Of a DNA stretch of 64,000 bases, positions 9,998 through 54,404 are shown piece by piece. The position numbers and the translations under genes were made by a program. This DNA comes from Candidatus Brockarchaeota archaeon (GTDB taxonomy: Archaea; Thermoproteota; EX4484-205; JAAOZP01). How positions within the stretch are numbered: position 1 is the first letter of the stretch; each line of letters opens with the position of its first letter. The stretch lies in contig JAFNJB010000053.1 of assembly GCA_017601245.1 (NCBI GenBank), forward strand, positions 16,501 through 80,500, read 5' to 3'. Under the pieces are notes generated by a model. That model made no database searches. It was not told the DNA's origin and worked only from the letters and a program-made list of their open reading frames with translations.

Positions 9998-10682
9998 TCC
10001 TCCTGCTCGTCACGAATGAGGCGAGCTCTTTCCTCTTAGATTCCGAATGCGGCTTACCCTTAACATACAATGCGCCAACTGGGCAGACAGCAGAGCATTT
10101 CCCACAGGATGTGCATGATTCAGCAAAGCCCCATTTATCGTTTAGGTCGAAAATAACCTTGGAATTCTTCCCTCTAAGCATGAGGTCTATCGTATGCACG
10201 CCTTCAATCTCATCACAAATCCTTATGCAACGCGTGCAAAGTATGCATCTATTTGGATCGTAGGCGAACCTCTCATGTGTAAGGTCTAATTCATAATTGG
10301 TCCACTCTCTTTCAACCCTGAGGTGGTCAACTCCAAGATCGGTTGCGAGCTGCTGGAGTTCACAACTTCCGTTGGCTACGCAGACCGAGCAGACATGGGG
10401 TCTTTCCGATAGTAGTAACTCTACAGCCCACTTCCGATAGCGCTTAAGCCTTTCCGAATTTGTAATAATCTCCATCCCCTCCGCAACTGGCGTCACGCAG
10501 GATGCGAATACTCTTGGCGAGCCCTTTATCTCAACGAGGCAGACCCTACATCCTCCGAATGATGAAACCCCTTCGAGATAGCATAATGCTGGGATGTATA
10601 TGTTGTTTTCCCTAGCAACCTTAAGTATGGTATCGCCTTCTTTAGCAGTAACCTTCTTACCATCTATAGTGAGCTCTATCAT
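9978..10682 (-). CDS. hoxU: NuoG/HoxU-like iron-sulfur diaphorase subunit
   Basis: The N-terminal 2Fe-2S ferredoxin-like region (IELTIDGKKV...CYLEGVSSFGGCRVCLVEI) and 4Fe-4S CxxCxxC motifs are present. The likely start is the ATG at 10680-10682 (MIELTIDG), 2 nt after the hoxF stop. The ORF-track start at 10760 is probably too far upstream. Confidence 0.8.
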   Translation of the reverse strand: MIELTIDGKKVTAKEGDTILKVARENNIYIPALCYLEGVSSFGGCRVCLVEIKGSPRVFASCVTPVAEGMEIITNSERLKRYRKWAVELLLSERPHVCSVCVANGSCELQQLATDLGVDHLRVEREWTNYELDLTHERFAYDPNRCILCTRCIRICDEIEGVHTIDLMLRGKNSKVIFDLNDKWGFAESCTSCGKCSAVCPVGALYVKGKPHSESKRKELASFVTSRRSEKTIG

Positions 10683-10683
10683 T

Positions 10684-12336
10684 TTACTCGCCTCCCACAC
10701 CTCCGCCATTCTTAAAACACTTTCCCGCACTACACTTTTTCTCAAGGATGTGTGCAACATACTCGTCTCTGAAATACCTTAGCGTAGTAAGAGTTGGATT
10801 GGGCGCTGTCTGACCAAGGCCGCATAAACTAGCCTCCTTAATGAATTCGCAGAGCTCTTCAACTTTCTGAAGGTCTTCCAAAGACCCTTCTCCTCGCGTA
10901 AAGCCGTCTAGAATCTTATAGAGTTTGTAAAGCCCTACTCTACACGGTACACATTTTCCACAGGACTCGTCTACACAGAATTCCGTGAAGAACTTAGCCG
11001 TATCCACCATGCAGGAAGTATCGTCTAGAACAACTATACCCCCGGAGCCCATTATCGCACCGGCCTTAGTTAGAGACTCGTAGTCTATTGGAAGATCCAA
11101 CAGCTGTTCTGGTAAGAAGCCTCCAGATGGCCCACCAACCTGGACTGCCTTAAAACGCCTACCGGGTGGAACTCCTCCTCCTATCTCGAAAACAACTTCT
11201 CTAAGCGTTATGCCCATCGGGACTTCGATTAACCCCGGATTGTTAACCTTCCCGGTTAAGGAAAAGCATTTGGTGCCAGTGCAGTTTTTAGCTCCTATGC
11301 TTGCAAACCATTCACTGCCCTTAAGTAATATGACTGGAATATTTGCGAGTGTTTCAACATTGTTTATCAGCGTTGGCTTACCCCATAGGCCTGATTGCGC
11401 TGGGTAAGGTGGTCTAGGCCTAGGCATTGCCCTACGCCCCTCGATTGAAGCGAGTATTGCCGTCTCCTCACCTGCTACGAATGCCCCCGCTCCCAGCCTC
11501 AGCTCGATGTCGAAGCTGAATGCTGTTTCGAAAATCTTCTCTCCCAATAATCCCATTGACCTTGCTGCTTCAATAGCTTTCTTCAAAGTCTCAACAGCTA
11601 GCGGGTATTCGCTACGCACGTAGATGTAGCCCTTACTCGCACCCACAGCATATGCGGCTATGGCCATTCCTTCTATTATTGCATGCGGATCTGCCTCCGC
11701 CAGGGTACGGTTTGCAAAAACACCCGGATCACCCTCGTCAAGGTTAGCTATTACGTATTTCGGAGAACCCGTTGCCCTTGCAACGTATCTCCATTTAAGC
11801 CCTGTTAGAAATCCTGCTCCCCCTCTCCCCTTTAACCCGCTTAAAGCAACTTCTTCTATAACCCCTTCGGGAGTCATCCTCGTTAAGGCTTTTAGAAGAG
11901 CGTAATATCCTCCCACAGCAATATAATCCTCTATTCTCAAGGGATCTATCTTACCAGCGTTTCTCAAAACTATTCTAAGCTGCTTCTTAAAATACGCCTC
12001 GTTGCCGTACAACATGCTTTTAACAGGCCTGCCGTTAACGATATGCTCTTTAACAATCTCCTTAGCCCTATCTGGAGTAACGTTCTGATATAGATAGTCG
12101 CCTGGCTCTATTAAGACCGCAGGGGCTATTGAACATGTTCCTATGCAGCCTGTTCTGGCTACGTAACACTCTCCTTCAACTCCAAACTCCTTTACAGCAT
12201 CCTTGAACGCGCTCAATACTTTAAGTGCTCCGAATGGCATGCAACCGCTTGAACAGCAGACGTTTATCCTGTACCTGTAGGATTTGCGTGCTTCAGCCTC
12301 TTTTTGGGCTAGGCTACGTAATTCATCAGGCTTCAA
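10684..12336 (-). CDS. hoxF: NuoF/HoxF-like NAD(P)H-binding FMN iron-sulfur diaphorase subunit
   Basis: 550 aa with an N-terminal thioredoxin-like 2Fe-2S domain, a GGAGF glycine-rich NADH site, FMN-site residues, and the C-terminal 4Fe-4S motif ESCGKCVPCR. Confidence 0.85.
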   Translation of the reverse strand: MKPDELRSLAQKEAEARKSYRYRINVCCSSGCMPFGALKVLSAFKDAVKEFGVEGECYVARTGCIGTCSIAPAVLIEPGDYLYQNVTPDRAKEIVKEHIVNGRPVKSMLYGNEAYFKKQLRIVLRNAGKIDPLRIEDYIAVGGYYALLKALTRMTPEGVIEEVALSGLKGRGGAGFLTGLKWRYVARATGSPKYVIANLDEGDPGVFANRTLAEADPHAIIEGMAIAAYAVGASKGYIYVRSEYPLAVETLKKAIEAARSMGLLGEKIFETAFSFDIELRLGAGAFVAGEETAILASIEGRRAMPRPRPPYPAQSGLWGKPTLINNVETLANIPVILLKGSEWFASIGAKNCTGTKCFSLTGKVNNPGLIEVPMGITLREVVFEIGGGVPPGRRFKAVQVGGPSGGFLPEQLLDLPIDYESLTKAGAIMGSGGIVVLDDTSCMVDTAKFFTEFCVDESCGKCVPCRVGLYKLYKILDGFTRGEGSLEDLQKVEELCEFIKEASLCGLGQTAPNPTLTTLRYFRDEYVAHILEKKCSAGKCFKNGGGVGGE

Positions 12337-12998: not shown

Positions 12999-14027
12999 AT
13001 GGCTTTTGTGCTGAAGAAGGAGGAACTTCCCCACTTCTCTAAGCACATAATCTCCAAGGAATATGGTCTTTTCGCACCCGTTAGGAAAGAGGCTCGAAGC
13101 ATATTCAAAAGAATAGACGAGAATCAGGTTGGCGAGGTTTCTCTAGATTACATTAGGACTATCATGCCTCCTCTTAAAAGTCTCCTAATTCCTCCTAAAG
13201 AGACACTTCTGAAGATTAAAGACGGAAAGATCGAAGAAATGCTTCCGGGTCCTGAGAATAAGACTGCGATACTGGGTGTTCATCCATGTGATGTAAACGC
13301 AATGAATCTCTTGGAGAGAGTATATATGGATCGTCCCAAAGACCCCTATTTCGAAGCCAGGAGGAAGAACCTTATAATAATAGCTTTGAACTGTAGTAGT
13401 GCTGACGAGAAATGTTTCTGCACGTCATTTGGAACAGGCCCTTCTCTAGAAGAGGGCTTCGACCTAATACTTACCGACTTGGGCGATAGGTTTCTGGTTG
13501 AAGTAGGGTCGAGGAAGGGTTCAGAACTAATAGGAGACTTCTACATGCCAAAGGCTTCGAGCACAGACCTTATGGAAAAGGATGAAACAATAAGGAGGGT
13601 AAAAGGAATGATAAGGAGACATGTTAATACAGCTGGGCTCCAAAGGATAATGACCGGGGCGCTTTACAATCCTATTTGGAATGAGCTTGCAGATAGATGC
13701 ACGGGTTGCGGTGCCTGCAACATGGTTTGTCCAACGTGCTTCTGCTTCAACGTTATCGACGAGCCCGAGCTGGATTCAGGTAGCGTTTTAAGATCAAGGA
13801 CATGGGACGGTTGCCTCCTTTGGGAATACGCTGAAGTAGCATTGGGCGGGAACTTTAGAAAAGACCTCTCAGCTAGGATAAGGCAATTCGTAAACCATAA
13901 GATGAATTATTGGCTTAACCAGTATGGCGCATTGGGATGCGTAGGTTGCGGTAGATGCATAGAACAGTGTCCAGCGAAGATAGATATTACCAGTATAGTT
14001 GCTAGATTGAGAGGTGAGCTATTATGA
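12999..14027 (+). CDS. hydB: sulfhydrogenase beta subunit (HydB-like 4Fe-4S protein)
   Basis: Two ferredoxin-type motifs (CTGCGACNMVCPTC and CVGCGRCIEQCP). It is the first gene of a four-gene operon with 4-nt overlaps. Confidence 0.8.
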   Translation: MAFVLKKEELPHFSKHIISKEYGLFAPVRKEARSIFKRIDENQVGEVSLDYIRTIMPPLKSLLIPPKETLLKIKDGKIEEMLPGPENKTAILGVHPCDVNAMNLLERVYMDRPKDPYFEARRKNLIIIALNCSSADEKCFCTSFGTGPSLEEGFDLILTDLGDRFLVEVGSRKGSELIGDFYMPKASSTDLMEKDETIRRVKGMIRRHVNTAGLQRIMTGALYNPIWNELADRCTGCGACNMVCPTCFCFNVIDEPELDSGSVLRSRTWDGCLLWEYAEVALGGNFRKDLSARIRQFVNHKMNYWLNQYGALGCVGCGRCIEQCPAKIDITSIVARLRGELL

Positions 14028-14863
14028 GTAATGAATCTGAAAACCCGTATCTACCCGCCTTCGCGAAAGTAGTGGAGATTAGAGATGAGAATTCTACGAC
14101 TAAGACTTTTAAACTAAGGATGTTAAACAATAAAGCATTGAGGTTTAGACCTGGGCAATTCGACATAATATCTTACTTCGGCGTCGGAGAATCGGCATTC
14201 TCAATCTCCTCAAGCCCTGAGGAGAAGGATGTTTTCGAAAACACCATTAGGAAGGTTGGCAGAGTAACTACTGCGCTCTTTAACGTGAAGCCCGGTGACA
14301 TACTTGGAGTCAGAGGGCCATACGGCAAGCCTTGGCCTCTTGAAAGAGTGATGGGGAGCGACCTTATAATAATAGCTGGAGGAATGGGGCTGGCCCCTTT
14401 GAGACCAGTAATACACTATATTGCTAAACATAGGGATCTCTACGGTTCTGTCGACATTCTTTACGGGGCGAGGACTCCGGGAGACATGATATTCACTTAT
14501 GAGTTTGATTCTTGGAGGAATATTCCAAATACTCGTCTTTACCTGACTGTCGACTATGTTCCACCGAATACGAAGTGGGAGTATGATGTTGGTGTTGTAA
14601 CCGAGCTTTTGAAATATGTTAAACCGAGGATGCGTGATACTAACGTTTTTGTCTGCGGTCCAGAGGTCATGATGAAGTTCACTGCTCAATTGCTACTTAG
14701 AATGGGCTTCTACCCTTCAGAGATATTCCTCTCTTTAGAAAGGAGAATGAAATGTGGAATAGGGAAATGTGGACATTGTCAAATAGGATACAAGTATGTT
14801 TGCAAGGATGGTCCAGTATTCAATCTAGAGGAGATAGGGCTTCTCCCAGATGTTATTGAGTGA
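14024..14863 (+). CDS. hydG: sulfhydrogenase gamma subunit (HydG-like; ferredoxin-NADP reductase/PyrK-like with a C-terminal 2Fe-2S)
   Basis: An FAD/NAD-binding FNR-like fold (RFRPGQFDII, GGMGLAPL) plus a C-terminal CGIGKCGHCQ...C cluster motif, in 279 aa. Confidence 0.8.
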   Translation: MSNESENPYLPAFAKVVEIRDENSTTKTFKLRMLNNKALRFRPGQFDIISYFGVGESAFSISSSPEEKDVFENTIRKVGRVTTALFNVKPGDILGVRGPYGKPWPLERVMGSDLIIIAGGMGLAPLRPVIHYIAKHRDLYGSVDILYGARTPGDMIFTYEFDSWRNIPNTRLYLTVDYVPPNTKWEYDVGVVTELLKYVKPRMRDTNVFVCGPEVMMKFTAQLLLRMGFYPSEIFLSLERRMKCGIGKCGHCQIGYKYVCKDGPVFNLEEIGLLPDVIE

Positions 14864-14871
14864 GGTGTTGA

Positions 14872-15627
14872 ATGATGAATGGTAAATTGAAGGTCGGTGT
14901 ATTTAAACTCGCATCGTGTTCAGGTTGCCAAATGGTCTTAGTTCATCTAGAGGAAAGCCTATTAGAAGTATTGAAATACGTTGAATTAAAATATTTCAGA
15001 ATGGTTAGTGACGATGATCTTCCAAATGAACCCTTAGATGTGGCTATTGTTGAAGGAGCAGTAACTAATGAGGAGGAGGGGATTATGATTAAGAAGATAA
15101 GGAAAATGTCTAGGTTTCTTATTGCAGCAGGCGCATGCGCAGCCACAGGAGGATTGAATGCCATTAAGAACACCACTCCGGAGGGTGAAGTAGAGAGTAC
15201 AGTTTATTCCTCTCCTGAATACATAAGGTCTGGGAAAGCATTCGGCTTAAACGAATATGTTAACGTCGATGCATACTTATACGGCTGTCCAATAGATGGG
15301 AGGGAGTTGATCAATACGTTGATGTCGCTCGCCATACGCGTCCCACCCTACATACCTGGCATCACAGTCTGTATGGAGTGTAAGATGAACGGTAACGAAT
15401 GCATATTCCTAACAAGAGGAGAGCCGTGCCTCGGACCTGTTACGGTAGGAGGTTGTAATGCACTATGTCCTTCAAATGGTGTAACATGCGAAGGCTGTAG
15501 AGGTGTCTTGAAAGGGACTAATCCCAAGGGCTTGGAACTGGCTTGGACTAATGCGGGTGTTAGCCCAGATTTAATACGTTTAAAGCTGAGAAAATATAGT
15601 GATGTCTACAAGCTTTTGACGAGGTGA
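14872..15627 (+). CDS. hydD: [NiFe]-hydrogenase small subunit (HydD / delta-like)
   Basis: VGVFKLASCSGCQM is the proximal Fe-S motif. 251 aa with additional Cys motifs for the medial and distal clusters. Confidence 0.85.
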   Translation: MMNGKLKVGVFKLASCSGCQMVLVHLEESLLEVLKYVELKYFRMVSDDDLPNEPLDVAIVEGAVTNEEEGIMIKKIRKMSRFLIAAGACAATGGLNAIKNTTPEGEVESTVYSSPEYIRSGKAFGLNEYVNVDAYLYGCPIDGRELINTLMSLAIRVPPYIPGITVCMECKMNGNECIFLTRGEPCLGPVTVGGCNALCPSNGVTCEGCRGVLKGTNPKGLELAWTNAGVSPDLIRLKLRKYSDVYKLLTR

Positions 15628-16919
15628 TTAATATGGTTGATAGGACAATAGTTTATGATTACATAAGCAGGGTTGAGGGACAGGGATCTCTGGAAGTTAC
15701 CATTTCAAACGGTGAAGTAAAGGATGCAAAACTCCAGATATTTGAAGCTCCAAGGTTTTTCGAAGCTTTTCTAAGAGGTAGGAGGGCTCTTGAACTTCCC
15801 GAGTTGACTTCAAGAATATGTGGCATATGCCCAATTGCGCACGCCATAACGGCGGCTAAGGCTGTAGAAAATGCTCTCGAAATATCATTGGATGAGAGGA
15901 CTGTAGCATTAAGGAAGGCGCTAGCCCTATCGGGGATGATGCAGAGTCATGCTCTTCACATATACTTCCTTGCAGCACCAGACTACCTCGGCTATCCGAG
16001 TGCGATCGCAGCCTCTAAAGATTTATTGGATGTTGTGAAAAGAGGATTCAGGCTAAAGAGAATAGCAAACATGGTTTCTGAATATATAGGTGGAAGAGTA
16101 GTACACCCCGTCACGCTTACCGTAGGAGGCTTTACGAGGAGTCCGCCTGCTGAAAAACTTGACGAGATTATTAAAGCCTTAGATTCTTCTCTTCAAGATG
16201 CTTTTGAAACAATTTCTCTCGTTTCAAACTTCAAATATCCAGAATTCGAATCAGACCATATTAATATTGCGCTTTCAAACAAAGGAGAGTATGCTGTAAC
16301 CGAGGGGGTTGCTAAAACAAGCTCTGGGGAATATTTCGATGGTAGAGATTACAGGAAGTATGTGAATGAAGAGCAAGTTCCATATTCAAATACTAAAAGG
16401 TCGATTTTTCGCGGAGGAAGCTCCTTTGAAGTAGGTCCTGTTGCGCGCTTTAACCTCAACTATGACTTCTTATGCGACACAGCTAAGGAGGCTGCTGAGA
16501 AATCCGGCGTAAGGCCTCCTCTTAAAAACCCGTTTAAATCCACAATAATAAGGGCAATAGAGATAATTCAGGCAATAGAGGAGATGAAGAGCATACTTAA
16601 AGAGGGTGTAAACGTTCCTCCCCCCCAGAAACCAAAGCTCCGTCAAGGTATGGGGGCTGCTTTAACGGAGGCTCCTCGAGGGCTCTTGTATCACTCTTAT
16701 ATCCTGGACAAGGAGGGTAGGGTTTCAAAGGCGGACATAGTGACTCCGACTGCTCACAATTCTTGGAGAATAGAGAGGGACGTTTACGAACTAGTTCCTT
16801 CAATAGCTCACTTAGATGACAATTCCCTCAGAAGCCTCCTAGGCATGCTTGTAAGGTCCTACGACCCCTGCATCTCCTGCTCTGTCCACGCTTTCACTGT
16901 AAGGCTCATAAGGGAGTAG
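15624..16919 (+). CDS. hydA: [NiFe]-hydrogenase large subunit (HydA / alpha-like, group 3b-type)
   Basis: RICGICPIAH near the N terminus and DPCISCSVHA at the C terminus. 431 aa. Confidence 0.9.
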   Translation: MINMVDRTIVYDYISRVEGQGSLEVTISNGEVKDAKLQIFEAPRFFEAFLRGRRALELPELTSRICGICPIAHAITAAKAVENALEISLDERTVALRKALALSGMMQSHALHIYFLAAPDYLGYPSAIAASKDLLDVVKRGFRLKRIANMVSEYIGGRVVHPVTLTVGGFTRSPPAEKLDEIIKALDSSLQDAFETISLVSNFKYPEFESDHINIALSNKGEYAVTEGVAKTSSGEYFDGRDYRKYVNEEQVPYSNTKRSIFRGGSSFEVGPVARFNLNYDFLCDTAKEAAEKSGVRPPLKNPFKSTIIRAIEIIQAIEEMKSILKEGVNVPPPQKPKLRQGMGAALTEAPRGLLYHSYILDKEGRVSKADIVTPTAHNSWRIERDVYELVPSIAHLDDNSLRSLLGMLVRSYDPCISCSVHAFTVRLIRE

Positions 16920-17462
16920 ATAATCCTGTTCAATCGCAACGTCTTTTAAAACCCCTGAGTTTATCACAGCCTCAAGTATGGCTTTAACAACTCCATTAAC
17001 TGCCTTGAGACACTCGCCTGAAACTTTTTCGCCTAAATCGAATTTCTCAACGCCTATTCCGAGAATTTTTATATCCGTCTCTAAGGGTTTTCCAAAAGCC
17101 TCTAAGAGTAACGGAATAGGTATATCGTGCGTAGAGGCGGGTACGTAAGAATCCAGGTCTGTTGGATCTAGAATTGCCAACCTCTCTCCATTGGGGAAGG
17201 CGTCTACGATTAGAAGATGCGAGGGGTTCTTCTCAAAAGCGTAATCGATACATGAGTCGATTGAAGCCCCACATTCAATAGCTTCAAATTTTTCACTGTT
17301 GAAAGGCTTCAAGGCTCTGGCTACGAGTAGGCCAGCAGCATCATCGCTTCTCAACTCATTACCAATGCCTAAAATTATGAAAAGCCTTGCACCAATCAAC
17401 CATTTTTTTAGAAAACTCTGTAATTCTTCAATCGAACAGTAATACACGTCCGTTTTTAACAT
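16839..17462 (-). CDS. hydrogenase maturation endopeptidase (HycI/HybD family)
   Basis: ILGIGNELRSDDAAG matches the GxGNxxxxDDGxG protease motif. The ORF carries about 20 extra N-terminal aa, so the true start is uncertain. Its 3' end overlaps the hydA 3' end convergently by 81 nt. Confidence 0.75.
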   Translation of the reverse strand: MLKTDVYYCSIEELQSFLKKWLIGARLFIILGIGNELRSDDAAGLLVARALKPFNSEKFEAIECGASIDSCIDYAFEKNPSHLLIVDAFPNGERLAILDPTDLDSYVPASTHDIPIPLLLEAFGKPLETDIKILGIGVEKFDLGEKVSGECLKAVNGVVKAILEAVINSGVLKDVAIEQDYLLPYEPYSESVDRAGDAGVVGPYKHA

Positions 17463-20119: not shown

Positions 20120-21274
20120 ATGGGGAAAGTCTGCGTAATACACTATTCTGAAATAGGGTTGAAGGGCCGTAATAGGCCCTTTTTCGAGAGGAAGCTAGTT
20201 GAGAATGTAAAACGGGTTCTTAAGGGGGTTTGGGATGTTAGAATCGAGAGGCTCCAGGGTAGGCTTGTTTTCCCGGTTGATAATGCTGATCTACAGAGGA
20301 TAGTTGAAAGCGTGAAGAGTGTTTTCGGAGTCTCATGGTTTGCCTTTGCATCAGTGTCTGAGCCGACCGTCGATTCCATTAAAAAAACCGTCTTGGAAGA
20401 GGCTTCTAAAATAGTTGCTGGAGGAGATGCGTTAAAGGTTGAGGTGAAAAGGGCTGATAAGAGCTTCCCCATAACGTCGATAGAGCTCAGTAAAATCCTT
20501 GGAGAAGTTCTCGTTAAGAACCTCGGTGTTAAAATATCGTTGAAGAACCCCTCTAAGAAAATATATGTCGAAATATTAAAGAGGGAGGCCTATGTTTTCA
20601 CAGAGAGGATTAGAGGGCCCGGAGGCCTTCCAGTGGGTTCTTCCGGCAGAGTGCTTTCGCTAATATCCGGTGGTATAGATTCGCCTGTTGCATCATACCT
20701 CATGATGAAAAGAGGCTGCGAAGTTCACTATATCCACTTTCATCCTTTCTACGATAATTCTGAAGCTGAGAATTCTAAAGTTATGGAGATAGTTAGAAAG
20801 CTACTGCCCTACTCTGGTAGGACTACTGTTACTTTCATACCGTCTTACGAGTTTCAAATGGCTACGGTAAACATACCTGCTAAATACGATCTCGTTCTAT
20901 TCAGGAGATTCATGTTTAAAGTTGCTGAGAGAATTGCTGAAGCAGAAGGTGCTAAAGCCCTTGTCACAGGAGAGAGCCTTGCTCAAGTAGCGTCTCAAAC
21001 ACTTGACAACATCGTGGCGATAAGCATTGGTTTAAAGATGCCGGTCTTTAGACCCTTAATAGGCTACGATAAGGAGGAGATTATTGCATTGGCAAATAAA
21101 ATAGGGACGTACGAGCTTTCAATAAAGCCTTACAGGGATTGTTGTAGCATAATTGCAAGGCACCCTGAGACGAGGGCAAGGCCTGAAGTTGTTAAGGAAC
21201 TTGAGGATAAAATAAACATGGATTCAATAGTGGAAAAGAGCATTAAGCTTTCCTCCAGGGTTGTTGTAGAATAA
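20120..21274 (+). CDS. thiI: tRNA 4-thiouridine synthase ThiI (THUMP plus PP-loop; no rhodanese domain)
   Basis: N-terminal THUMP-like region and PP-loop LSLISGGIDSPVASY, in 384 aa. It ends without a rhodanese domain, as is typical in archaea. Confidence 0.85.
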   Translation: MGKVCVIHYSEIGLKGRNRPFFERKLVENVKRVLKGVWDVRIERLQGRLVFPVDNADLQRIVESVKSVFGVSWFAFASVSEPTVDSIKKTVLEEASKIVAGGDALKVEVKRADKSFPITSIELSKILGEVLVKNLGVKISLKNPSKKIYVEILKREAYVFTERIRGPGGLPVGSSGRVLSLISGGIDSPVASYLMMKRGCEVHYIHFHPFYDNSEAENSKVMEIVRKLLPYSGRTTVTFIPSYEFQMATVNIPAKYDLVLFRRFMFKVAERIAEAEGAKALVTGESLAQVASQTLDNIVAISIGLKMPVFRPLIGYDKEEIIALANKIGTYELSIKPYRDCCSIIARHPETRARPEVVKELEDKINMDSIVEKSIKLSSRVVVE

Positions 21275-22212: not shown

Positions 22213-22274
22213 CGGGTATCGGTTTTTAAAAACAATGTAATCTTTAAAAGCCTTGTTGAACGAATGTCTACCAA

Positions 22275-23471
22275 GTGCTTCCGCTAATGCTTGACCCTTA
22301 TAAGGTTAGGGAAGACTTCCCGAGCATAGCTGGAGACTACATATTTATGAACAATGCTGACTCTACGGGCATTCCCATTCCCGTTCTAGAGAAAGTATTA
22401 GCCTACTATAACGAGGTTAAGAGTAGGCCGGGTTCTGAAAGTACTCCTTCACAGAAGGCCTTAGAGCTATACTTGGATGCTCGCGATGTAATCCTTAAAC
22501 ACTTTGGTATTGCCGAAGATAACATCGTGTTTTCATCTAGTAATTTCCAGAGTCTTACAGTAATCCTTCAAAGCATAGAGTTTAAGAATAATGATATCGT
22601 CTTAATTTCTTCAAATACTCAGAGCAAGATTGTAAATCTTGTCGAGGAATACCTAAGTAAGAGCAGGGGTAGGGTTGAAGTATTCGATTTCGAAACCGAG
22701 AATTTAGAAGAAAAGCTTAAGACGATTGTTAAAAAGGGTGTTAAGGTTGCTTTAATCAATCATGTTTGTGGGGCGACTGGAACAATAATTCCACTGGACA
22801 AGGTCGTACCCGTTTTAAAGGATAGGGGGGTTGTAACAATCTTGGATGCTACATACTCTGCTCAAAGAATGCGTATTAACCTACCGAAGATAGGAGTCGA
22901 CTATGCTTACTTTAAATCAGGCAATATTTTCAGTATAGAGGGAACAAGCATCCTCTATTTCTCTGAAGAGAGGGCCAATAGTATAAAGAAGACGCAGGGA
23001 TACTTACTCATAAAACGCGGTGAAGAAGAGAAGCACATAGATACTGTTGCGCTCGCAGCAGCAATAAAATACTTGAATGAGCTGGGTTTCGAGGATATTT
23101 TAAACCATGAAAGGAGCCTCGTAGATGAAATAACTAGTATCGCTAGTGGGGACGGTATTTCTTTTTACCAGCCTGCTTCCAGAGATTCTAAGACTGGAAT
23201 ATTTTCATTAACCATAAATAATCTCCCGTCTAATCTCCTACAGGTCATTTTAGAGGACCAGTTTCACATAATTGCTGAATCGGGAAGCTTCGACAGCCAG
23301 TTCCTCCTGCAAAAAACCGGTGGTAGGAATGTTCTCCGGCTATCCCCAACCATTTTCAATACCATTGAGGAGGCTAGAAGAGTCGGAGAAAAACTTGCCG
23401 AAATAAGAGAGTCGTGGAGGGGGAAAGCTGTTGAAAAGGAGGCCGGTGAAGAGGAGCAGAAGCCAGAATAG
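22275..23471 (+). CDS. class V aminotransferase-fold, NifS/IscS-like protein with apparently substituted catalytic residues (likely pseudoenzyme)
   Basis: NifS-like fold and the conserved C-terminal motif LRLSPTIFNTIEE. The SGHK PLP-lysine motif aligns to FKSGN, and the SGSACTS cysteine loop aligns to SGSFDSQ, so neither the lysine nor the cysteine is retained. Confidence 0.65.
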   Translation: MLPLMLDPYKVREDFPSIAGDYIFMNNADSTGIPIPVLEKVLAYYNEVKSRPGSESTPSQKALELYLDARDVILKHFGIAEDNIVFSSSNFQSLTVILQSIEFKNNDIVLISSNTQSKIVNLVEEYLSKSRGRVEVFDFETENLEEKLKTIVKKGVKVALINHVCGATGTIIPLDKVVPVLKDRGVVTILDATYSAQRMRINLPKIGVDYAYFKSGNIFSIEGTSILYFSEERANSIKKTQGYLLIKRGEEEKHIDTVALAAAIKYLNELGFEDILNHERSLVDEITSIASGDGISFYQPASRDSKTGIFSLTINNLPSNLLQVILEDQFHIIAESGSFDSQFLLQKTGGRNVLRLSPTIFNTIEEARRVGEKLAEIRESWRGKAVEKEAGEEEQKPE

Positions 23472-23521: not shown

Positions 23522-24082
23522 ATGGCGAGGTATGAGTTTGCAGAGTTTAGAAAGTTGACCCCGGGGTATGATTGCGGGCTCTGTGGAAATGCTTCATGCT
23601 CCACTTTTGCACGCCGGTTGTTACTTGGAGTCAATAGCGTATCGGATTGTCCAATACTCCAAAACGAGGGTTATTCTGATAGTAAGAATAAGATTGGAGA
23701 AATGCTCAAAGACGGTGTTGTACACAGCTCCCCTTCTATAATAACGATCCCTGGCCTTAAAACTAAGTATGCTCATCCAAACTATTTCGAGGACCGCAAT
23801 GAAAGGCTTCCAACAAGGTTTCTCGATTACGATACTGCACGGTACCTCTTAGGCTTAATCTGGGATATTAAAGATGATAAGGGGGCTAGGACGGAAGTGA
23901 TTGATACCGTCTTCGGAAACTTGAGGTTCCTAATAACAACTAGCGGTAGAATATGTGTCAACATCGGTGAGCAAAGGACTGAAGAAAAGGAAATTGTACA
24001 AATACTGTATAAGGTTCTCTGGGGCGCAGTAGACTTGCTCCGCAAGGCTGAATATGCCCCAGGAACGGTTGTACACTCTTAG
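23522..24082 (+). CDS. small protein with an N-terminal putative Fe-S cluster domain (RnfB/CdhE-type C-x2-C-x4-C...C) and an unknown C-terminal domain
   Basis: YDCGLCGNASCSTFARRLLLGVNSVSDCP matches the Pfam FeS-type motif nCGaCGyxxCxxfAxAl...Cp. 186 aa. Confidence 0.5.
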   Translation: MARYEFAEFRKLTPGYDCGLCGNASCSTFARRLLLGVNSVSDCPILQNEGYSDSKNKIGEMLKDGVVHSSPSIITIPGLKTKYAHPNYFEDRNERLPTRFLDYDTARYLLGLIWDIKDDKGARTEVIDTVFGNLRFLITTSGRICVNIGEQRTEEKEIVQILYKVLWGAVDLLRKAEYAPGTVVHS

Positions 24083-24192
24083 AATACGTTGGAGGCTGTT
24101 GCCTAGACTATAGCCTACCCTCCGGACCGCAGCTGACTAAGGCACCATTCCTCCAAAGGGGCCCGCCTAGACGTATTGATGAAAATCCAGAC

Positions 24193-24744
24193 ATGATGCT
24201 CCCATCTTTACATCGGATACTTCAAGATGCTACTGGAGATTATTATGATGATTATCTTAAACAGGCTGGTGAGATACTTATGAACATTGGGATGATTATC
24301 GAAGGCTTAGGAAGTAGTCAGGCCAAGAACATATCATTACTGATATCCAAGCACAACGATTTAATGAGGAAAATAGTTAAGGAAATTGCTTCAGTAAGCA
24401 TCGAAGAGGCTTCTAGGCTTGTTGTATTAGCAGGACTTATCCTAAACCTTAAACGTGCTATCGAAGCTCTAGACGCCATATCTTTCCTTTTCGAAGGCAG
24501 TGGAGAGTCTTTAGAAGCGCAGAGGAAAAACGTTAAGGAAGCTTCTGAAATACTCCTAAAAGCCTTTGGGAATTTGAAGACGAGAAGGGAGAAGGAACTC
24601 GACGATGTCCTCTCAAGGTTTAAACTCCTAAAGATGACTCTCGGTGGCATCGATAGGATAAGGAGTAATACTATTGCCATACTTGTTTACAAAATGGCCT
24701 ATAACGGTTATTGCATAGCAAGGGTTGCCAGGGGGCTAGTATGA
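24193..24744 (+). CDS. hypothetical all-helical protein
   Basis: A 183-aa ORF with good coding appearance and no recognisable catalytic motif. The sequence looks PhoU/DUF47-like helical. Confidence 0.4.
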   Translation: MMLPSLHRILQDATGDYYDDYLKQAGEILMNIGMIIEGLGSSQAKNISLLISKHNDLMRKIVKEIASVSIEEASRLVVLAGLILNLKRAIEALDAISFLFEGSGESLEAQRKNVKEASEILLKAFGNLKTRREKELDDVLSRFKLLKMTLGGIDRIRSNTIAILVYKMAYNGYCIARVARGLV

Positions 24745-35848: not shown

Positions 35849-36079
35849 TTGGCCTTGCTCAAAGCATATTTGCTAATAGTCTGCGAAGTGGGCTCAGAAA
35901 GGGACATTGAAGAAGAAATCCGAAAGGTTGAGAACGTTACTAATGTGGATGTCGTCTATGGCGAGTATGACATAATAGTAACGGTAGAGGTCAACGATAT
36001 CAAACAGCTCGACAGTGTTGTAACACAGATTAGGCGTATAAAGGGTGTTCTAAGAACTATGACACTCCTATGCGATTAG
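35849..36079 (+). CDS. stand-alone Lrp/AsnC C-terminal (RAM) domain protein
   Basis: 76 aa. AYLLIVCEVGSE...VENVTNVDVVYGEYDIIVTVEV is the RAM-domain beta-alpha-beta-beta-alpha-beta pattern. No HTH. Confidence 0.55.
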   Translation: MALLKAYLLIVCEVGSERDIEEEIRKVENVTNVDVVYGEYDIIVTVEVNDIKQLDSVVTQIRRIKGVLRTMTLLCD

Positions 36080-36441
36080 GCTATTCTCAACCCGCCTATG
36101 CTCACTCTTGAAAAGGAAGCCTTCCAAGAATCGTAGTCCTTAACTATGAAGCTCGGCTGCTCCAAAGTGTTTTCTTTAGAACGATAAATCAGCGTGACTA
36201 CTGGCCTGCTCAAGAATCCTCCCCTGCTGATCTTAACCTGGTCCAGTATGCTCAAGGGTACTTCAAGCCTTATCAATATCCTCCTATCTCTCCTACCTAC
36301 GTGTTCTTCAAAGAAGATTCTCTGATTCGTCAATACTAACGCGCCTTTTAACGGTGCTTCTAGAAAAGTCGAGCCGCCTATGAACTTGGCAGAGTCTTCA
36401 AAAATCAGAGTCTCGCCTAACGGGAGCTTTCTTTCAGACAT
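36076..36441 (-). CDS. hypothetical protein, bacterial PH/GRAM-like domain
   Basis: 121 aa. LVLTNQRIFFEE...IRLEVPLSILDQVKIS resembles the bPH/GRAM beta-sandwich pattern. Weak. Confidence 0.35.
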   Translation of the reverse strand: MSERKLPLGETLIFEDSAKFIGGSTFLEAPLKGALVLTNQRIFFEEHVGRRDRRILIRLEVPLSILDQVKISRGGFLSRPVVTLIYRSKENTLEQPSFIVKDYDSWKASFSRVSIGGLRIA

Positions 36442-36566
36442 TTCCCCATTTCGACGAGGCCATGCGACTTTTTAACCTTTAATGCCATCTTGCTTAAACT
36501 CAGGCATTTTACGTTTGAAAAAGCATATTTATTTCTATTCAGCACGAAAATAATGGTTGAAGTAGA

Positions 36567-37151
36567 TTGGGGGATAAGGAAGAGGAGACACAGCGTCTTG
36601 CCGAATTAAAACAATATCTGTCGCAGAAGAAAGAAATGCTTGAGGAGGAGCTTGAAAAGCTAAATAGCATAATCAGCGTCATAGACGACCTTCTCGCTTC
36701 AAAGAGTTTCAAGACTGGTATTGAGGTTATGAAAAAAGCTGAGGAGAAGGTTGAGGCTGAAACAGCGTTACAAAAGCTTGAACTCGTCTATAAGGGTACT
36801 AAGGTGGGTGAGATAGAGGTTTACCAGACTTATGCCAAGGTCATACCTCTTCCGGAGCTTAAGCTTAGCACAGTCACTTCTCCTTTTGAAGCGTTTTTAG
36901 TTAGAAAGGTCTTGGAGCCGATGAGGGAGAGGGATGTTGAAAGAGCTGCTAAAAACGAGCTTAGGCCAGATCAAATGTTTTCTTACGATATAATCGAAGA
37001 AGGAGGCTTGTTAAAATACATAGTAGTAAGGAATTTCAGAGATAGGATTAGGCTTAAAGAACTTGCCAACGCCGCGTCCTGGACCTTCTTTACAATGGCT
37101 TCTAAGAGGGGGAGCGTGCAAGCGGGCTTAGATGAACCTGATCAGGGTTGA
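36567..37151 (+). CDS. hypothetical protein with an N-terminal coiled coil
   Basis: 194 aa with a heptad-rich N-terminus (LAELKQYLSQKKEMLEEELEKLNSI). No recognisable motif. Confidence 0.4.
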   Translation: MGDKEEETQRLAELKQYLSQKKEMLEEELEKLNSIISVIDDLLASKSFKTGIEVMKKAEEKVEAETALQKLELVYKGTKVGEIEVYQTYAKVIPLPELKLSTVTSPFEAFLVRKVLEPMRERDVERAAKNELRPDQMFSYDIIEEGGLLKYIVVRNFRDRIRLKELANAASWTFFTMASKRGSVQAGLDEPDQG

Positions 37152-37808
37152 GAGTATTTCCTTCAGCTCGTAGGTGTTGGAGGCAATATACTTAGCTCCG
37201 GCTTCTTTCAGCTTGTCAACACCCCATAAGTTGGAGGCTATTCCAACAGGCATTACTCCGGCTTCTTTAGCTGCTACAATATCTATTGGAGAATCTCCGA
37301 TATGAACAGTTTCATCAGGAGGAGTTCCTGTAGCCTCGCATGCTTTAAGTATCAGGTCTGGGAAAGGCTTAATCCTCTCTACATCGTCTCTTGTAAAAAC
37401 ATGTTTGAAAAATATTTTTAAATTAGTCTTTTCGAGTATTACTCTAGAGGCTCTCTTGCAATTGTTAGTGCAAACAACCATGTTAACACCGGTTTTTCTC
37501 AACCACTCGAGTAATTCTACGATTCCGTTTTTAACAATCGGCTTATCCGCAGCCTCAAGCTCTAATGGCTCAATAGCTTCATATATGCTTCTCCTTAGGT
37601 TTTTTAACTGGTCTTCGCTAAGCCCTTTTCTCCGCATGAACATTATAGCTTCTTCAAGGTTTACCGATGCTGGTTTAGATTCGGAAAGTATGCTTTTTTC
37701 AACACCTTTCTCAATAAGCTTCTCGATAATCAACCTCCTAGCCAGAGGATAATTGTAATTGAATTCTATCAGCGTCCCATCTAGGTCAAAGAGTACTAAC
37801 CTAACCAT
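37128..37808 (-). CDS. HAD-superfamily hydrolase (subfamily IA, phosphoglycolate phosphatase-like)
   Basis: Motif I LVLFDLDGTL, motif III K, and motif IV GDSPIDIVAAKEAG. 226 aa. Confidence 0.8.
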   Translation of the reverse strand: MVRLVLFDLDGTLIEFNYNYPLARRLIIEKLIEKGVEKSILSESKPASVNLEEAIMFMRRKGLSEDQLKNLRRSIYEAIEPLELEAADKPIVKNGIVELLEWLRKTGVNMVVCTNNCKRASRVILEKTNLKIFFKHVFTRDDVERIKPFPDLILKACEATGTPPDETVHIGDSPIDIVAAKEAGVMPVGIASNLWGVDKLKEAGAKYIASNTYELKEILSTLIRFI

Positions 37809-37812
37809 TTTC

Positions 37813-38058
37813 CTAGGCCTTTGCCTGTTGGACTGAGAGAACTACGCGCGTATCGGTTGTAGCAATAGACTCTACGTTCCTTATCTTCAAGACTGTTTTC
37901 ATAAGCTTTTCAACATCTAGTACGTCAACCCTTATCAACAGGTCTATGTCCCCAGTCAATTCTATAACTTCCCTAACTTCCTCGATATTCAGCAGCTTCT
38001 GCATTACCTTCTCCCTGTTGAACCCTTTTGCTATTTTTGCTGTTACGAACGCTTGCAA
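37813..38058 (-). CDS. stand-alone Lrp/AsnC RAM-domain protein (paralog 1)
   Basis: 81 aa. ELTGDIDLLIRVDVLDVEKL...IRNVESIATTDTRVVL. Confidence 0.6.
   Translation of the reverse strand: MQAFVTAKIAKGFNREKVMQKLLNIEEVREVIELTGDIDLLIRVDVLDVEKLMKTVLKIRNVESIATTDTRVVLSVQQAKA
37933..37962. repeat. 30-nt exact direct repeat (copy 1 of 2; copy 2 at 38220..38249) inside the two adjacent RAM-domain genes
   Basis: TATCAACAGGTCTATGTCCCCAGTCAATTC occurs at both positions and encodes ELTGDIDLLI on the minus strand of each gene. Confidence 0.85.
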
Positions 38059-49707: not shown

Positions 49708-51984
49708 ATGTCCAACCAGAAATCTGAAGAAGTAGTTGCCTACAGGATTAACGTAAACGGTATAGTGCAGGGCGTCGGATACAGGCCGTTCGTATACCGT
49801 ATAGCTACTGAACTCGGTTTAAACGGGTTTGTTCTTAACTCTGGGAATGGTGTTATAATCGAGGTTGAGGGCAAGCTTGACGATTGTTTAAAATTCATAG
49901 AGAGGCTTAGGACGGAGAAGCCGCCGAGAGCGATTGTTAAAAACCTGGTTTATGAAAGAATTCCCTTAAAGGGTTATGGTGAATTCAAAGTAGAGAAGAC
50001 TGTTAATGGGGAAGTGGAAACCCTTTGCCCACCCGATGTAGCGGTATGCCAAGACTGTTTAAACGAGCTTTTTAACCAAGTTGACAGGAGGTATCTGTAC
50101 CCCTTCATAAACTGTATAAACTGTGGCCCGCGTTTTACAATATTAGAGAAACTACCCTATGACAGGGTTAATACAAGCATGAAATCTTTCGAAATGTGCG
50201 GAGAATGTGTAAGGGAGTATTCCGATCCGTTGGATAGGAGGTTTAAGGCTGAGCCGAATGCATGTAGATCATGTGGCCCTAGTGTTAAGCTATATGGTAG
50301 AGACGGGTTGTTGAGAGTGTCAAACCCTATTTCGGAGGCTGCGAGACTGATAAACGAGGGCTTCATAGTTGCGGTTAAGGGCTACGGTGGATTCCACTTA
50401 GCTTGCGATGCAACCAATAGAGATGTCGTGTTAGAATTGAGAAGGAGGAAGAAGAGAGGCAATAAGCCCTTTGCAATCATGGTTAAGAATATTGAAGAGG
50501 CTGAGAGTATAGTCGAGCTCAGCGATTCTGAGAAAAAATGGCTTCTACACTATTCTGCTCCGATAATTCTCGCGAAGAAGAGAGTGCCCAATCCGGTTGT
50601 GGAAGAAGTCGCCCCCGGCATGAAGTATCTGGGCGTTTTCCTACCTTATACTCCAATACACCATATTCTCATGAGGGGGGTTAAGCCTTCTGCAATAGTC
50701 TTAACGAGCGGAAACGTTTCAGAGGAGCCGATAATCTTTAGGGATGAAGAAGCTTTTGAAAAACTTGGGAATATAGCGGATTACATATTGACGTATAACC
50801 GTAGGATAGTTAACTTTGCAGACGATTCCGTTGGGTTTGTACAAGACGATTCGTTAAGGCTAGTTAGGAGGAGCAGGGGTTTCGTACCGGAGCCTGTTGA
50901 AGTCGAATTGAATATTGACGGTGTCTTAGCAATGGGTGCTGACTTGAATAATACTTTTGCAATAGCGAAAAGGGGCAGGGTATTCCTCAGTCAGTACATG
51001 GGTGATTTGGAAAACATTTTCATCAGGAGAAGATACGTTGAGACCGTAAAGAGTTTAAAGCGGCTTCTCAATCTAGATTACAAGACCATTGCCTATGATC
51101 TGCATCCCGGATACTATTCTTCACAGATAGGGTTATCGCTGAAGGGCAATAAGATTCCCATACAGCATCACTATGCTCATATTCTTTCAGCAATGGCTGA
51201 AAACAAGATTCTAAACCAGGATGTTTTAGGCATAGCTTTCGACGGTACGGGATATGGGGATGATGGAAACCTGTGGGGCTCAGAATTCATAGTAGTCAGA
51301 AATGGGGAGTATTTCAGGAGGGGGCATTTGAAATATGTTCCAATGCCAGGTGGTGAAAAAGCGATTGTAGAACCCGTTAGGATGGCTTTCAGCTATTTAT
51401 ACGATGCGATGGGGGAAGATGCGTTGAAAATCGATATTGGAATAGGAGATAGGATAAAGACGTTTTTGAAAAAGATGATTGAAAAAGGGATCAACGTGCC
51501 GAGGACCTGCGGCTTAGGTAGATTATTCGACGCCGTATCAGCACTATTAGGAGTGTGTTTAAAGAGGACTTTTGAAGGAGAACCTGCTATTATGCTTGAA
51601 ATGGTTGCTTCCGACGGTATTGAGGAGAGCTATCCCTTCAGCATAGTTGGGGGGAGAGAATACATTGTGGATACTGCGCCAATAATACTTTCAATAATCG
51701 AAGATTTGAAGAAGAACGTTCCGGCGAGTAAGATAAGCACGCGGTTCCACGAGACTATTGTAAGGCTTACAGTTGAACTTGCTGAGACGATAAGGCTTGA
51801 AGAGGAAGTTAAGAACATTGTTTTAAGCGGGGGCGTTTTCCAAAACAGGATAATCTCGTCCAGGATTAAGAGGGCTATGGAGGAACGTGGCTTAAGAGTC
51901 TTCTGCAATAACTTAATACCTACCAACGATGGTGGAATATCTCTTGGACAGGCCGTAGCCACGGGTTTTAAGACGGGTGGTTGA
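49708..51984 (+). CDS. hypF: [NiFe]-hydrogenase maturation carbamoyltransferase HypF
   Basis: Acylphosphatase-like N-terminus (YRINVNGIVQGVGYRPFV), two CxxC zinc-finger pairs, a YrdC-like region, and a Kae1-like C-terminus. 758 aa. Confidence 0.9.
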   Translation: MSNQKSEEVVAYRINVNGIVQGVGYRPFVYRIATELGLNGFVLNSGNGVIIEVEGKLDDCLKFIERLRTEKPPRAIVKNLVYERIPLKGYGEFKVEKTVNGEVETLCPPDVAVCQDCLNELFNQVDRRYLYPFINCINCGPRFTILEKLPYDRVNTSMKSFEMCGECVREYSDPLDRRFKAEPNACRSCGPSVKLYGRDGLLRVSNPISEAARLINEGFIVAVKGYGGFHLACDATNRDVVLELRRRKKRGNKPFAIMVKNIEEAESIVELSDSEKKWLLHYSAPIILAKKRVPNPVVEEVAPGMKYLGVFLPYTPIHHILMRGVKPSAIVLTSGNVSEEPIIFRDEEAFEKLGNIADYILTYNRRIVNFADDSVGFVQDDSLRLVRRSRGFVPEPVEVELNIDGVLAMGADLNNTFAIAKRGRVFLSQYMGDLENIFIRRRYVETVKSLKRLLNLDYKTIAYDLHPGYYSSQIGLSLKGNKIPIQHHYAHILSAMAENKILNQDVLGIAFDGTGYGDDGNLWGSEFIVVRNGEYFRRGHLKYVPMPGGEKAIVEPVRMAFSYLYDAMGEDALKIDIGIGDRIKTFLKKMIEKGINVPRTCGLGRLFDAVSALLGVCLKRTFEGEPAIMLEMVASDGIEESYPFSIVGGREYIVDTAPIILSIIEDLKKNVPASKISTRFHETIVRLTVELAETIRLEEEVKNIVLSGGVFQNRIISSRIKRAMEERGLRVFCNNLIPTNDGGISLGQAVATGFKTGG

Positions 51985-52201
51985 TATGTGCCTCGGCATA
52001 CCCGGTAGAGTCGAGGAAGTAAAAGGTGATGAAGCAATAGTGTCTTTCGGAGGTGCTCGTAGAAGTGTGAGGCTGGATCTTGTCGACAATGTTTCAGTAG
52101 GAGACTACGTTATCGTCCATGCGGGGTTTGCCATACAAGTCTTAGACCAGGAGGCCGCTCTGGAAATGTTGGAGATGCTAAGGGAGATGTTTAGAGAATG
52201 A
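51977..52201 (+). CDS. hypC: hydrogenase maturation factor HypC
   Basis: N-terminal MCLGIPGRV (the MC[LI][GA][LVI]P motif). 74 aa. Confidence 0.85.
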   Translation: MVDMCLGIPGRVEEVKGDEAIVSFGGARRSVRLDLVDNVSVGDYVIVHAGFAIQVLDQEAALEMLEMLREMFRE

Positions 52202-53295: not shown

Positions 53296-53331
53296 CTCGC
53301 AACGCTTTGAAAGAACGGCTTATTAAGAACA

Positions 53332-54228: not shown

Positions 54229-54404
54229 AACTAAGGCCTATTTGCGATTTTAACTCCGGAAAGATAATTTCTACAAGACAATTATTCTATTTTTTAGACA
54301 AATATTCAACGAGTTGTAATAGATGGATCTGCTAGAAAAAGCTTAATTTCTAATTAAGAGTTGAAATCTCAAACAAGGAATAGTCCTATGAGGGTTGAGA
54401 GAAA

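Follow-up and report, generated by a model that had tools for sequence, protein, structure and literature searches.

A SufS-type protein of Candidatus Brockarchaeota without the PLP lysine and the catalytic cysteine, encoded next to an iron-sulfur gene with an apparent conserved -1 frameshift

Introduction

Homologs of cysteine desulfurases that no longer carry out the chemistry of their family have been described in archaea. In the IscS of Archaeoglobus fulgidus (PDB 4eb5/4eb7) and in IscS1 of Methanosarcina acetivorans, the lysine that binds pyridoxal phosphate (PLP) has been lost and desulfurase activity is absent, while the proteins act as partners in iron-sulfur (Fe-S) biogenesis (PMC7585200), where the catalytic cysteine of the lysine-less IscS ligates a [2Fe-2S] cluster on the adjacent IscU (PMC7585200). 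Sulfide has been described as the sulfur source of archaea that have no desulfurases (PMC12192291). Here, we describe a gene for another such homolog on a stretch of 64,000 nucleotides (nt) from a Candidatus Brockarchaeota archaeon (contig JAFNJB010000053.1, positions 16,501 to 80,500; hereafter the window), a contig that derives from Jinze hot-spring sediment (JGI 3300000866). The protein, which we call the pseudo-desulfurase, lacks both the PLP lysine and the persulfide cysteine, and the two reading frames downstream of its gene appear to be a single gene that depends on a -1 frameshift.

The pseudo-desulfurase and the lysine-less IscS are both archaeal desulfurase homologs of sulfide-rich anaerobes that have lost the PLP lysine, which is replaced here by an asparagine, N213. 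They differ in that the lysine-less IscS is a type I protein that kept its cysteine and is encoded beside IscU, whereas the pseudo-desulfurase is of type II, has no conserved cysteine and is encoded beside a PF04060 protein; moreover, its PLP site is far more dismantled. We found no literature on a SufS-type desulfurase homolog without both the lysine and the cysteine, and the published description of the Brockarchaeota (main text and 18 supplementary files) makes no mention of desulfurase, sufS, iscS or sufB. For the downstream gene, the closest described case is fucA1 of Sulfolobus solfataricus, the only experimentally proven cellular -1 programmed ribosomal frameshift in Archaea (PMC8037382, PMC8211752).

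Results

A type II desulfurase fold in an intact gene

The open reading frame (ORF) at 22275..23471 on the + strand is real and matches its description in the initial annotation, which was made from the sequence alone. Its true start is probably the ATG at 22287, because all 25 orthologs begin with MLDPYK and the JGI gene caller assigned 394 amino acids (aa) to the protein on the source contig. Residues are numbered from this Met throughout, and adding 4 gives the numbering of the 398-aa version. The divergent intergenic region between the gene and alaX, 74 nt long, holds a TATA-like box with a putative promoter role.

22243..22249, + strand: TATA-like box TTTAAAA, read from the sequence, about 40 nt upstream of ATG 22287; promoter role putative
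22287..23471, + strand: pseudo-desulfurase gene (SufS type, fold of the class V aminotransferases) for a protein of 394 aa; in the ORF list, its start is 12 nt further upstream, at GTG 22275

The match to Pfam Aminotran_5 (PF00266) spans the whole protein (E=2.4e-36; residues 23-369 aligned to profile positions 1-370), and the nearest solved structure is the cysteine desulfurase 5b7s of Thermococcus onnurineus (E=1.7e-23, compared to E=1.2e-7 for 4eb5). An AlphaFold2 (AF2) model with a predicted local distance difference test score (pLDDT) of 85.5 was superposed by Foldseek on Bacillus subtilis SufS, Escherichia coli SufS and 5b7s with template-modelling (TM) scores of 0.81-0.83 at ~20% identity. 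Among NCBIfam models, the top match was sufS (TIGR01979) with 123 bits, as opposed to 38 bits for the IscS models; this score lies well under the cutoff of 475.1, and all NCBIfam desulfurase models score likewise far below theirs. Judged by these matches, the pseudo-desulfurase is a type II (SufS-like) homolog and not an IscS/NifS homolog. Hence, the cysteine-desulfurase/class V aminotransferase fold proposed in the initial annotation was borne out by PF00266 and Foldseek, while its comparison with IscS/NifS has to give way to SufS as the closer relative. In public databases, the protein is named 'aminotransferase class V-fold PLP-dependent enzyme' or 'cysteine desulfurase/selenocysteine lyase'.

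Loss of the cofactor site and of the persulfide cysteine

We aligned the pseudo-desulfurase clade with the 139-148 nearest outgroup cluster representatives and located the following positions, for which the roles (Schiff base, PLP stacking, O3' ligands and so on) are those that we take to be established for SufS structures.

22620..22622, + strand: Q112, at the position of the E-H-H His that stacks on PLP (outgroup H 0.98; clade Q 0.92)
22770..22772, + strand: G162, in place of the PLP O3'-binding Asn (outgroup N 0.94; clade G 0.96)
22845..22847, + strand: D187, the retained pyridine-N Asp (D in 147/148 outgroup representatives and all clade members)
22854..22856, + strand: Y190, in place of the PLP O3'-binding Gln of D-x-x-Q (outgroup Q 0.96; clade Y invariant)
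22914..22925, + strand: K210-S-G-N213, in place of the S-x-H-K PLP motif (alignment against the outgroup)
23289..23294, + strand: F335-D336, where the persulfide loop of genuine enzymes has His-Cys (alignment against the outgroup)
23337..23339, + strand: R351, the retained Arg for the substrate alpha-carboxylate (R in 143/148 outgroup representatives and all clade members)

Both catalytic residues are missing. The column of the Schiff-base lysine, which holds K in 141 of the 148 outgroup representatives, is an invariant asparagine (N213) throughout the clade, and the histidine that precedes the lysine (H in 141/148) is replaced by G212. The persulfide cysteine (C in 141/148) is replaced by D336 in the clade (0.96), with Gly in the most divergent member (P0024/L003/L004), and the His before it (H in 113/148) by the invariant F335. 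Across the 22 genomic copies, the states of the catalytic positions are identical, bar the Gly for D336 in L003/L004. The outgroup alignment thus upholds the motif pairing made in the initial annotation (FKSGN with S-x-H-K, and ESGSFDSQ with the HHC loop), and the two losses proposed there proved common to the whole clade, with Asn at the Lys position and Asp or Gly at the Cys position.

The loss extends far beyond these two residues. In the set that binds PLP, comprising the stacking His, the O3' Asn and Gln, the N1 Asp, the phosphate loop and the (F)EAGTP loop contributed in trans by the other subunit, the Asp alone is kept. A segment of ~21 residues with the GGG/(F)EAGTP motifs is deleted in the clade, and columns 83, 87 and 91 of the phosphate loop vary within it. 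Genuine relatives conserve 50 columns at a level of 80% or higher, and 27 of these have been substituted in the clade. What the pseudo-desulfurase shares with the type II enzymes of B. subtilis, E. coli and T. onnurineus (5b7s) is the fold, the pyridine-N Asp, the carboxylate Arg and the C-terminal R-x-S...F/Y-N-T motif, whereas it is without the Lys, the Cys, the stacking His, the Asn/Gln O3' ligands and GGG/(F)EAGTP, and has no SufE/SufU/SufBCD nearby.

The one lysine of the former PLP motif is K210, which sits in the column of the phosphate-binding Ser (S in 119/148), three residues before the canonical position. It is Lys in 22/22 genomic copies, four further lysines (K45, K153, K178 and K243) are invariant in the clade, and the pyridine-N D187 is kept, all of which would be in line with an enzyme that still uses PLP through a displaced lysine (K210 or one of the four others) and a nucleophile other than cysteine. 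However, position 210 is Arg in 3 of the 25 cluster representatives (P0015, P0016 and P0020), so that the lysine of FKSG is not the Schiff-base residue in disguise. Such an enzyme would furthermore have to work without the stacking His, the O3' Asn and Gln, the His before the lysine and the trans-subunit phosphate loop, and with a variable phosphate loop, and the sufS score of the protein stays far below the cutoff (123 as opposed to 475 bits). We consider this reading extremely unlikely. Nor does another cysteine take the place of the lost one: no alignment column holds a Cys majority in the clade, and two orthologs contain no Cys at all. Because the PLP site, the persulfide Cys and every conserved Cys are lost, the protein is predicted to be incapable of sulfur chemistry, that is, it cannot make, carry or hand over sulfur as far as its residues tell.

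A few of the 148 nearest SufS-like representatives are degenerate as well: P0046 lacks the His-Lys pair and the carboxylate Arg and keeps the Cys, while P0048 and P0067 are without the Cys. Near these genes (loci L024 and L025) there is no FeS-type neighbor of the kind described below, with radical SAM and CCG/LUD genes found instead; because their neighborhoods are without the FeS gene, these degenerate outgroup proteins represent independent events.

One isolated clade maintained by selection

A word-indexed search returned 25 close relatives with 56-88% identity, all from metagenome-assembled genomes (MAGs) of Thermoproteota/Brockarchaeota, and below these there was no match down to ~21% identity. 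When 1.84 billion cluster representatives were searched exhaustively with a profile, all family members fell into a single cluster at 50% identity, which scored 698 bits; outside it, the best full-length match reached 124 bits. These searches indicate that the pseudo-desulfurase family is one isolated clade. The gene is carried by 16 GTDB species representatives, several of which are named Candidatus Brockarchaeota.

We compared the ratio of nonsynonymous to synonymous substitution rates (dN/dS; Nei-Gojobori, unsaturated pairs) between the gene and its neighbors, which are introduced below, with the following values.

pseudo-desulfurase gene: dN/dS 0.108
thiI: dN/dS 0.082
alaX: dN/dS 0.117
FeS ORF: dN/dS 0.098
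g3: dN/dS 0.112
PGK: dN/dS 0.042

The gene evolves somewhat faster than its neighbors (56-86% identity compared to 87-94% for PGK), as would a decaying pseudogene or a product of assembly or sequencing errors. Against this stand 22 intact genomic copies without a stop codon, which come from independent assemblies and several hot springs and share the same features, a dN/dS like that of the housekeeping neighbors, and 98 invariant columns in the clade. We therefore set decay and artefact aside as practically negligible, including the sequencing error that the initial annotation had named as a way to be wrong. As the dN/dS of 0.108 goes together with the lack of stops across 22 copies, the substitution pattern identifies the gene as a maintained pseudoenzyme and not a pseudogene. 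The initial proposal of a pseudoenzyme derived from a cysteine desulfurase is thus strongly supported, with the catalytic residues and most PLP ligands gone at a dN/dS of ~0.11.

A [4Fe-4S]-domain partner gene

We fetched 21 loci for synteny, and the counts given here cover those that reach far enough. Two ORFs lie downstream of the pseudo-desulfurase gene on the same strand and at constant spacing: an ORF with an iron-sulfur domain, here called the FeS ORF (20/20 loci), and g3 (19/19 loci). In some loci thiI or PGK has moved away, yet the FeS ORF and g3 stay attached, and the pseudo-desulfurase, FeS and g3 families are all confined to the same clade.

23522..24082, + strand: FeS ORF, frame 0 of the partner gene; N-terminal PF04060 [4Fe-4S] domain followed by a highly conserved domain of no known family
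24193..24744, + strand: g3, helical C-terminal part; its one invariant Cys lies close to the C-terminal end, in YNGYC

The FeS ORF matches PF04060 with E=5.7e-9 and 36 bits against a cutoff of 23, as do 17/17 members. Its cluster motif, C-x2-C-x4-C-x16-C, occupies the N-terminal 45 residues, and C18, C21, C26 and C43 are invariant in 22 copies. The 17 orthologs show 65-94% identity and are restricted to the same clade. The best matches of the FeS domain, which are weak, are the large subunit of the corrinoid Fe-S protein CoFeSP (AcsC/CdhE) and RnfB; with these PF04060 proteins the partner has the C-x2-C-x4-C-x16-C cluster domain in common, whereas it lacks the TIM-barrel/corrinoid domain of the former and the ferredoxin domains of RnfB. 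No Pfam match was obtained for g3, whose homologs occur in the same clade only, and searches of the FeS protein, g3 and their 407-aa fusion (see below) against PDB, Pfam and NCBIfam recognized the PF04060 domain alone.

An apparent conserved -1 frameshift joins the FeS ORF and g3

The FeS ORF and g3 appear to form a single gene whose two halves are linked through a conserved -1 frameshift. Upstream of g3, the 110 nt regarded as intergenic can be read in the g3 frame without a stop as far back as 24052, a position within the 3' end of the FeS ORF. In all of the 20 clean loci (20/20), g3 lies in the -1 frame (offset 2) with respect to the FeS ORF, and this frame starts from the same TGA (24049-24051); the two frames overlap by 31 or 55 nt. 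Eleven loci are without any in-frame ATG, GTG or TTG, and the annotated start of g3 reads ILPSL there. The junction aligns without any insertion or deletion, and the ~50 nt that precede it are nearly invariant, wobble positions included.

24056..24064, + strand: candidate -1 slip site GCC CCA GGA, with tRNA-Pro re-pairing from CCA to CCC; -1 frame open from 24052
24061..24192, + strand: linker read in the -1 frame (intergenic in the annotation); it has three conserved Cys and the sequence RNGCTLLEYVGGCCLDY...LTKAPFLQRGP...

At the junction, C CCA (24058-24061) is the sole position where a tRNA could re-pair, and it departs from the canonical X XXY YYZ heptamer. The predicted peptide across the frameshift reads ...AEYAPR/NGCTLLEYVGGCCLDY..., and the conserved peptide of the -1 frame is (I/V)CP(R/K)NGCTLLEY(V/A)GGCCL(D/E)Y..P.G..LT(K/R)AP(F/I)LQRGP.... 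The proportions of nonsynonymous and synonymous differences (pN/pS) follow this change of frame: the body of the FeS ORF has a pN/pS of 0.28 in frame 0, while the 39 nt of overlap after GAACGG have 0.059 in frame -1 versus 1.52 in frame 0, and the 87-nt linker, open in all 17 distinct loci, has 0.26 in frame -1. The other frames at the overlap and linker give values of 1.5-2.1 and contain many stops. This pattern indicates that coding selection changes frame at the junction. Furthermore, the frame-0 tail of the FeS ORF is variable in all members, which is consistent with most ribosomes having left frame 0 before reaching it. In the window (24080-24082), as in its two closest relatives, L007 (6514) and L008 (7789), a TAG ends this tail 8 codons early, while the other loci have a sense codon there and continue to NTLEDAA.

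We suggest that g3 is probably the C-terminal half of a frameshift fusion of 407 aa, which is predicted to comprise the 4-Cys cluster domain, the three conserved linker Cys and the one invariant C-terminal Cys. Among the matches, which were 110-227 aa long, there was no uninterrupted FeS-g3 fusion homolog. As a stimulatory RNA, we found a candidate 8-bp hairpin 9 nt downstream, in which only C-G/U-G changes occur (covariation -0.51, single-sequence z-score 0.95); these values lend it no statistical support. A 'hungry codon' as the cause was rejected, the A-site codons GGA and AGA being common.

Like the partner gene, fucA1 specifies a single protein through two overlapping ORFs, of which the second lies in the -1 frame. 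Whereas fucA1 has a canonical A-AAA-AAT heptamer, the candidate site of the partner gene is the non-canonical C CCA, and while the frameshift of fucA1 occurs in few strains whose relatives have an uninterrupted gene, the partner gene is split in 20/20 loci of a phylum-level clade.

Neighborhood and the link to ThiI

In the window, thiI lies at 20120-21274, two genes away from the pseudo-desulfurase gene, as it does in most loci. The initial annotation had proposed from this proximity that the pseudo-desulfurase acts as a sulfur-relay scaffold or regulator for a ThiI that lacks the rhodanese domain. This ThiI indeed has no rhodanese domain and no CxxC, and contains four invariant cysteines, C5, C200, C341 and C342, the last two in a 'DCC' motif. 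We take C341/C342 to correspond to the persulfide-acceptor Cys of bacterial ThiI, and the protein is presumably closer to this type than to the archaeal ThiI of the [4Fe-4S] type. In Bacillus, thiI is paired with a dedicated desulfurase, NifZ. Thus, ThiI plausibly needs an external sulfur donor, judging from its sequence.

The pseudo-desulfurase cannot be a persulfide donor, however, because it has no conserved cysteine, and persulfide transfer is impossible for the two Cys-free orthologs. The gene order argues against the link as well. The alaX gene is convergent with thiI and divergent from the pseudo-desulfurase gene, and because it lies between the two on the opposite strand, thiI belongs to a different transcription unit and shares no transcript with the pseudo-desulfurase gene. 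In L001 and L002 (1309-6449; MAGs GCA_038850585.1 and GCA_038829445.1), an insertion of two genes, whose products have 1445 aa and 251 aa, separates thiI from alaX, with the downstream partners still attached to the pseudo-desulfurase gene; the 1445-aa protein has no Pfam match. Synteny in the clade extends over all 15 kb of the region, so that gene proximity is little informative in the first place. A role in serving ThiI, whether as sulfur relay or as regulator, is thus very unlikely.

Within the window we found no SufBC/SufBCD, IscU or SufE/SufU, and none of the loci examined contains an IscU gene. By tblastn, no second genuine desulfurase was present within the window; a weak match at 30.7-31.2 kb was rejected, as it is serine hydroxymethyltransferase (SHMT). 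Scans of the window for tRNAs and Rfam families returned nothing.

Several observations concern the surroundings. In L005 (Candidatus Brockarchaeota QC4_43 MAG), a 99-aa PGK fragment and two Aminotran_5 fragments (117 and 85 aa) lie at 10566-10865 and 13154-13706, downstream of the gene cluster, beside a GHL15 glycoside-hydrolase gene and before the intact PGK. These fragments appear to be left over from a local duplication or rearrangement. At ~36000-37900 of the window (L022 5476-7960), three stand-alone AsnC_trans_reg proteins of 74-81 aa are encoded around a HAD hydrolase gene. By homology to the gene tables of L005 and L023, the window further contains [NiFe]-hydrogenase subunit genes with a HycI-like maturation protease upstream (12999-17462), and hypF-hypC-hypD with a hypE-like (AIRS) gene downstream (49708-55406).

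Discussion

The loss of the cofactor site and of all conserved cysteines in a gene that is kept intact raises the question of what the protein does. We tentatively favor that the pseudo-desulfurase is a maintained, dead descendant of a SufS-type enzyme that serves as a non-catalytic docking or stabilizing subunit for the downstream Fe-S protein. In this scheme, the pseudo-desulfurase and the downstream gene would be co-expressed from their own promoter, as the constant order, orientation and spacing suggest, and the [4Fe-4S]-domain protein would be extended via the conserved -1 frameshift into the Cys-rich linker and the helical domain. The pseudo-desulfurase would then dock this partner by reusing the surface with which desulfurases bind acceptor proteins, similar to the lysine-less IscS of A. 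fulgidus with IscU, while sulfur would come from environmental sulfide and not from cysteine. D336 (the former Cys) and K/R210 (the former phosphate Ser) are candidate contacts to the metal center of the partner or to an anionic ligand. Such a scaffold fits a sulfide-rich habitat, where sulfide replaces cysteine.

A number of points weigh against this docking role. The proposed physical link between the pseudo-desulfurase and the Fe-S partner derives from gene linkage, and the high overall synteny makes the conserved adjacency weak on its own. The AF2 model of the FeS-domain protein is unusable (pLDDT 38.5), and the partner's domains other than the FeS domain match no recognizable family. Moreover, the A. 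fulgidus precedent acts via a retained Cys, which the pseudo-desulfurase is missing, and the fixed replacements close to the PLP ring (Q112, G162, Y190, N213, F335 and D336) fit a repurposed ligand pocket as well. The latter would make the pseudo-desulfurase a ligand-binding or newly catalytic protein that works without PLP, for example one by which an amino acid or an anionic metabolite is sensed or passed to the [4Fe-4S] partner. The near-invariance of the replacements (Y190, N213 and F335 at 1.00; Q112 at 0.92; G162 and D336 at 0.96), the retention of D187 and R351, and the presence of K/R210 at the former phosphate-binding Ser site all speak for such a pocket. On the other hand, the replaced columns are conserved no more than background (fraction at or above 0.9: 0.48 vs 0.44), the variable columns 83, 87 and 91 and the deleted trans-subunit EAGTP loop point to heavy remodeling, D187 and R351 may be structural, and no ligand can be named. 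We thus regard a repurposed pocket as rather unlikely, albeit as the main alternative.

Taken at its widest, the docking role leads to a two-gene module of the Brockarchaeota, in which a chemistry-free SufS subunit would pair with a multi-Cys [4Fe-4S] protein of ~407 aa that is made via an obligatory, phylum-wide frameshift at C CCA. We consider this complete picture possible and, on the whole, doubtful. If true, the module would be a new Fe-S or redox system, and the frameshift would be the first cellular case of the -1 type in Archaea to be deeply conserved, as that of fucA1 is confined to few strains. The downstream gene provides a testable candidate for a conserved frameshift in Archaea, where a single cellular case has been demonstrated.

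For the organisms themselves, annotation of the gene as a desulfurase would credit metabolic reconstructions of the Brockarchaeota with an activity that the protein, by the residues it has lost, cannot have. The list of dead desulfurases, with type I proteins (IscS) that lost the Lys only, would now extend to a type II protein without a cofactor site or a conserved Cys, which raises the question of what use sulfide-rich anaerobes make of the SufS scaffold without its chemistry.

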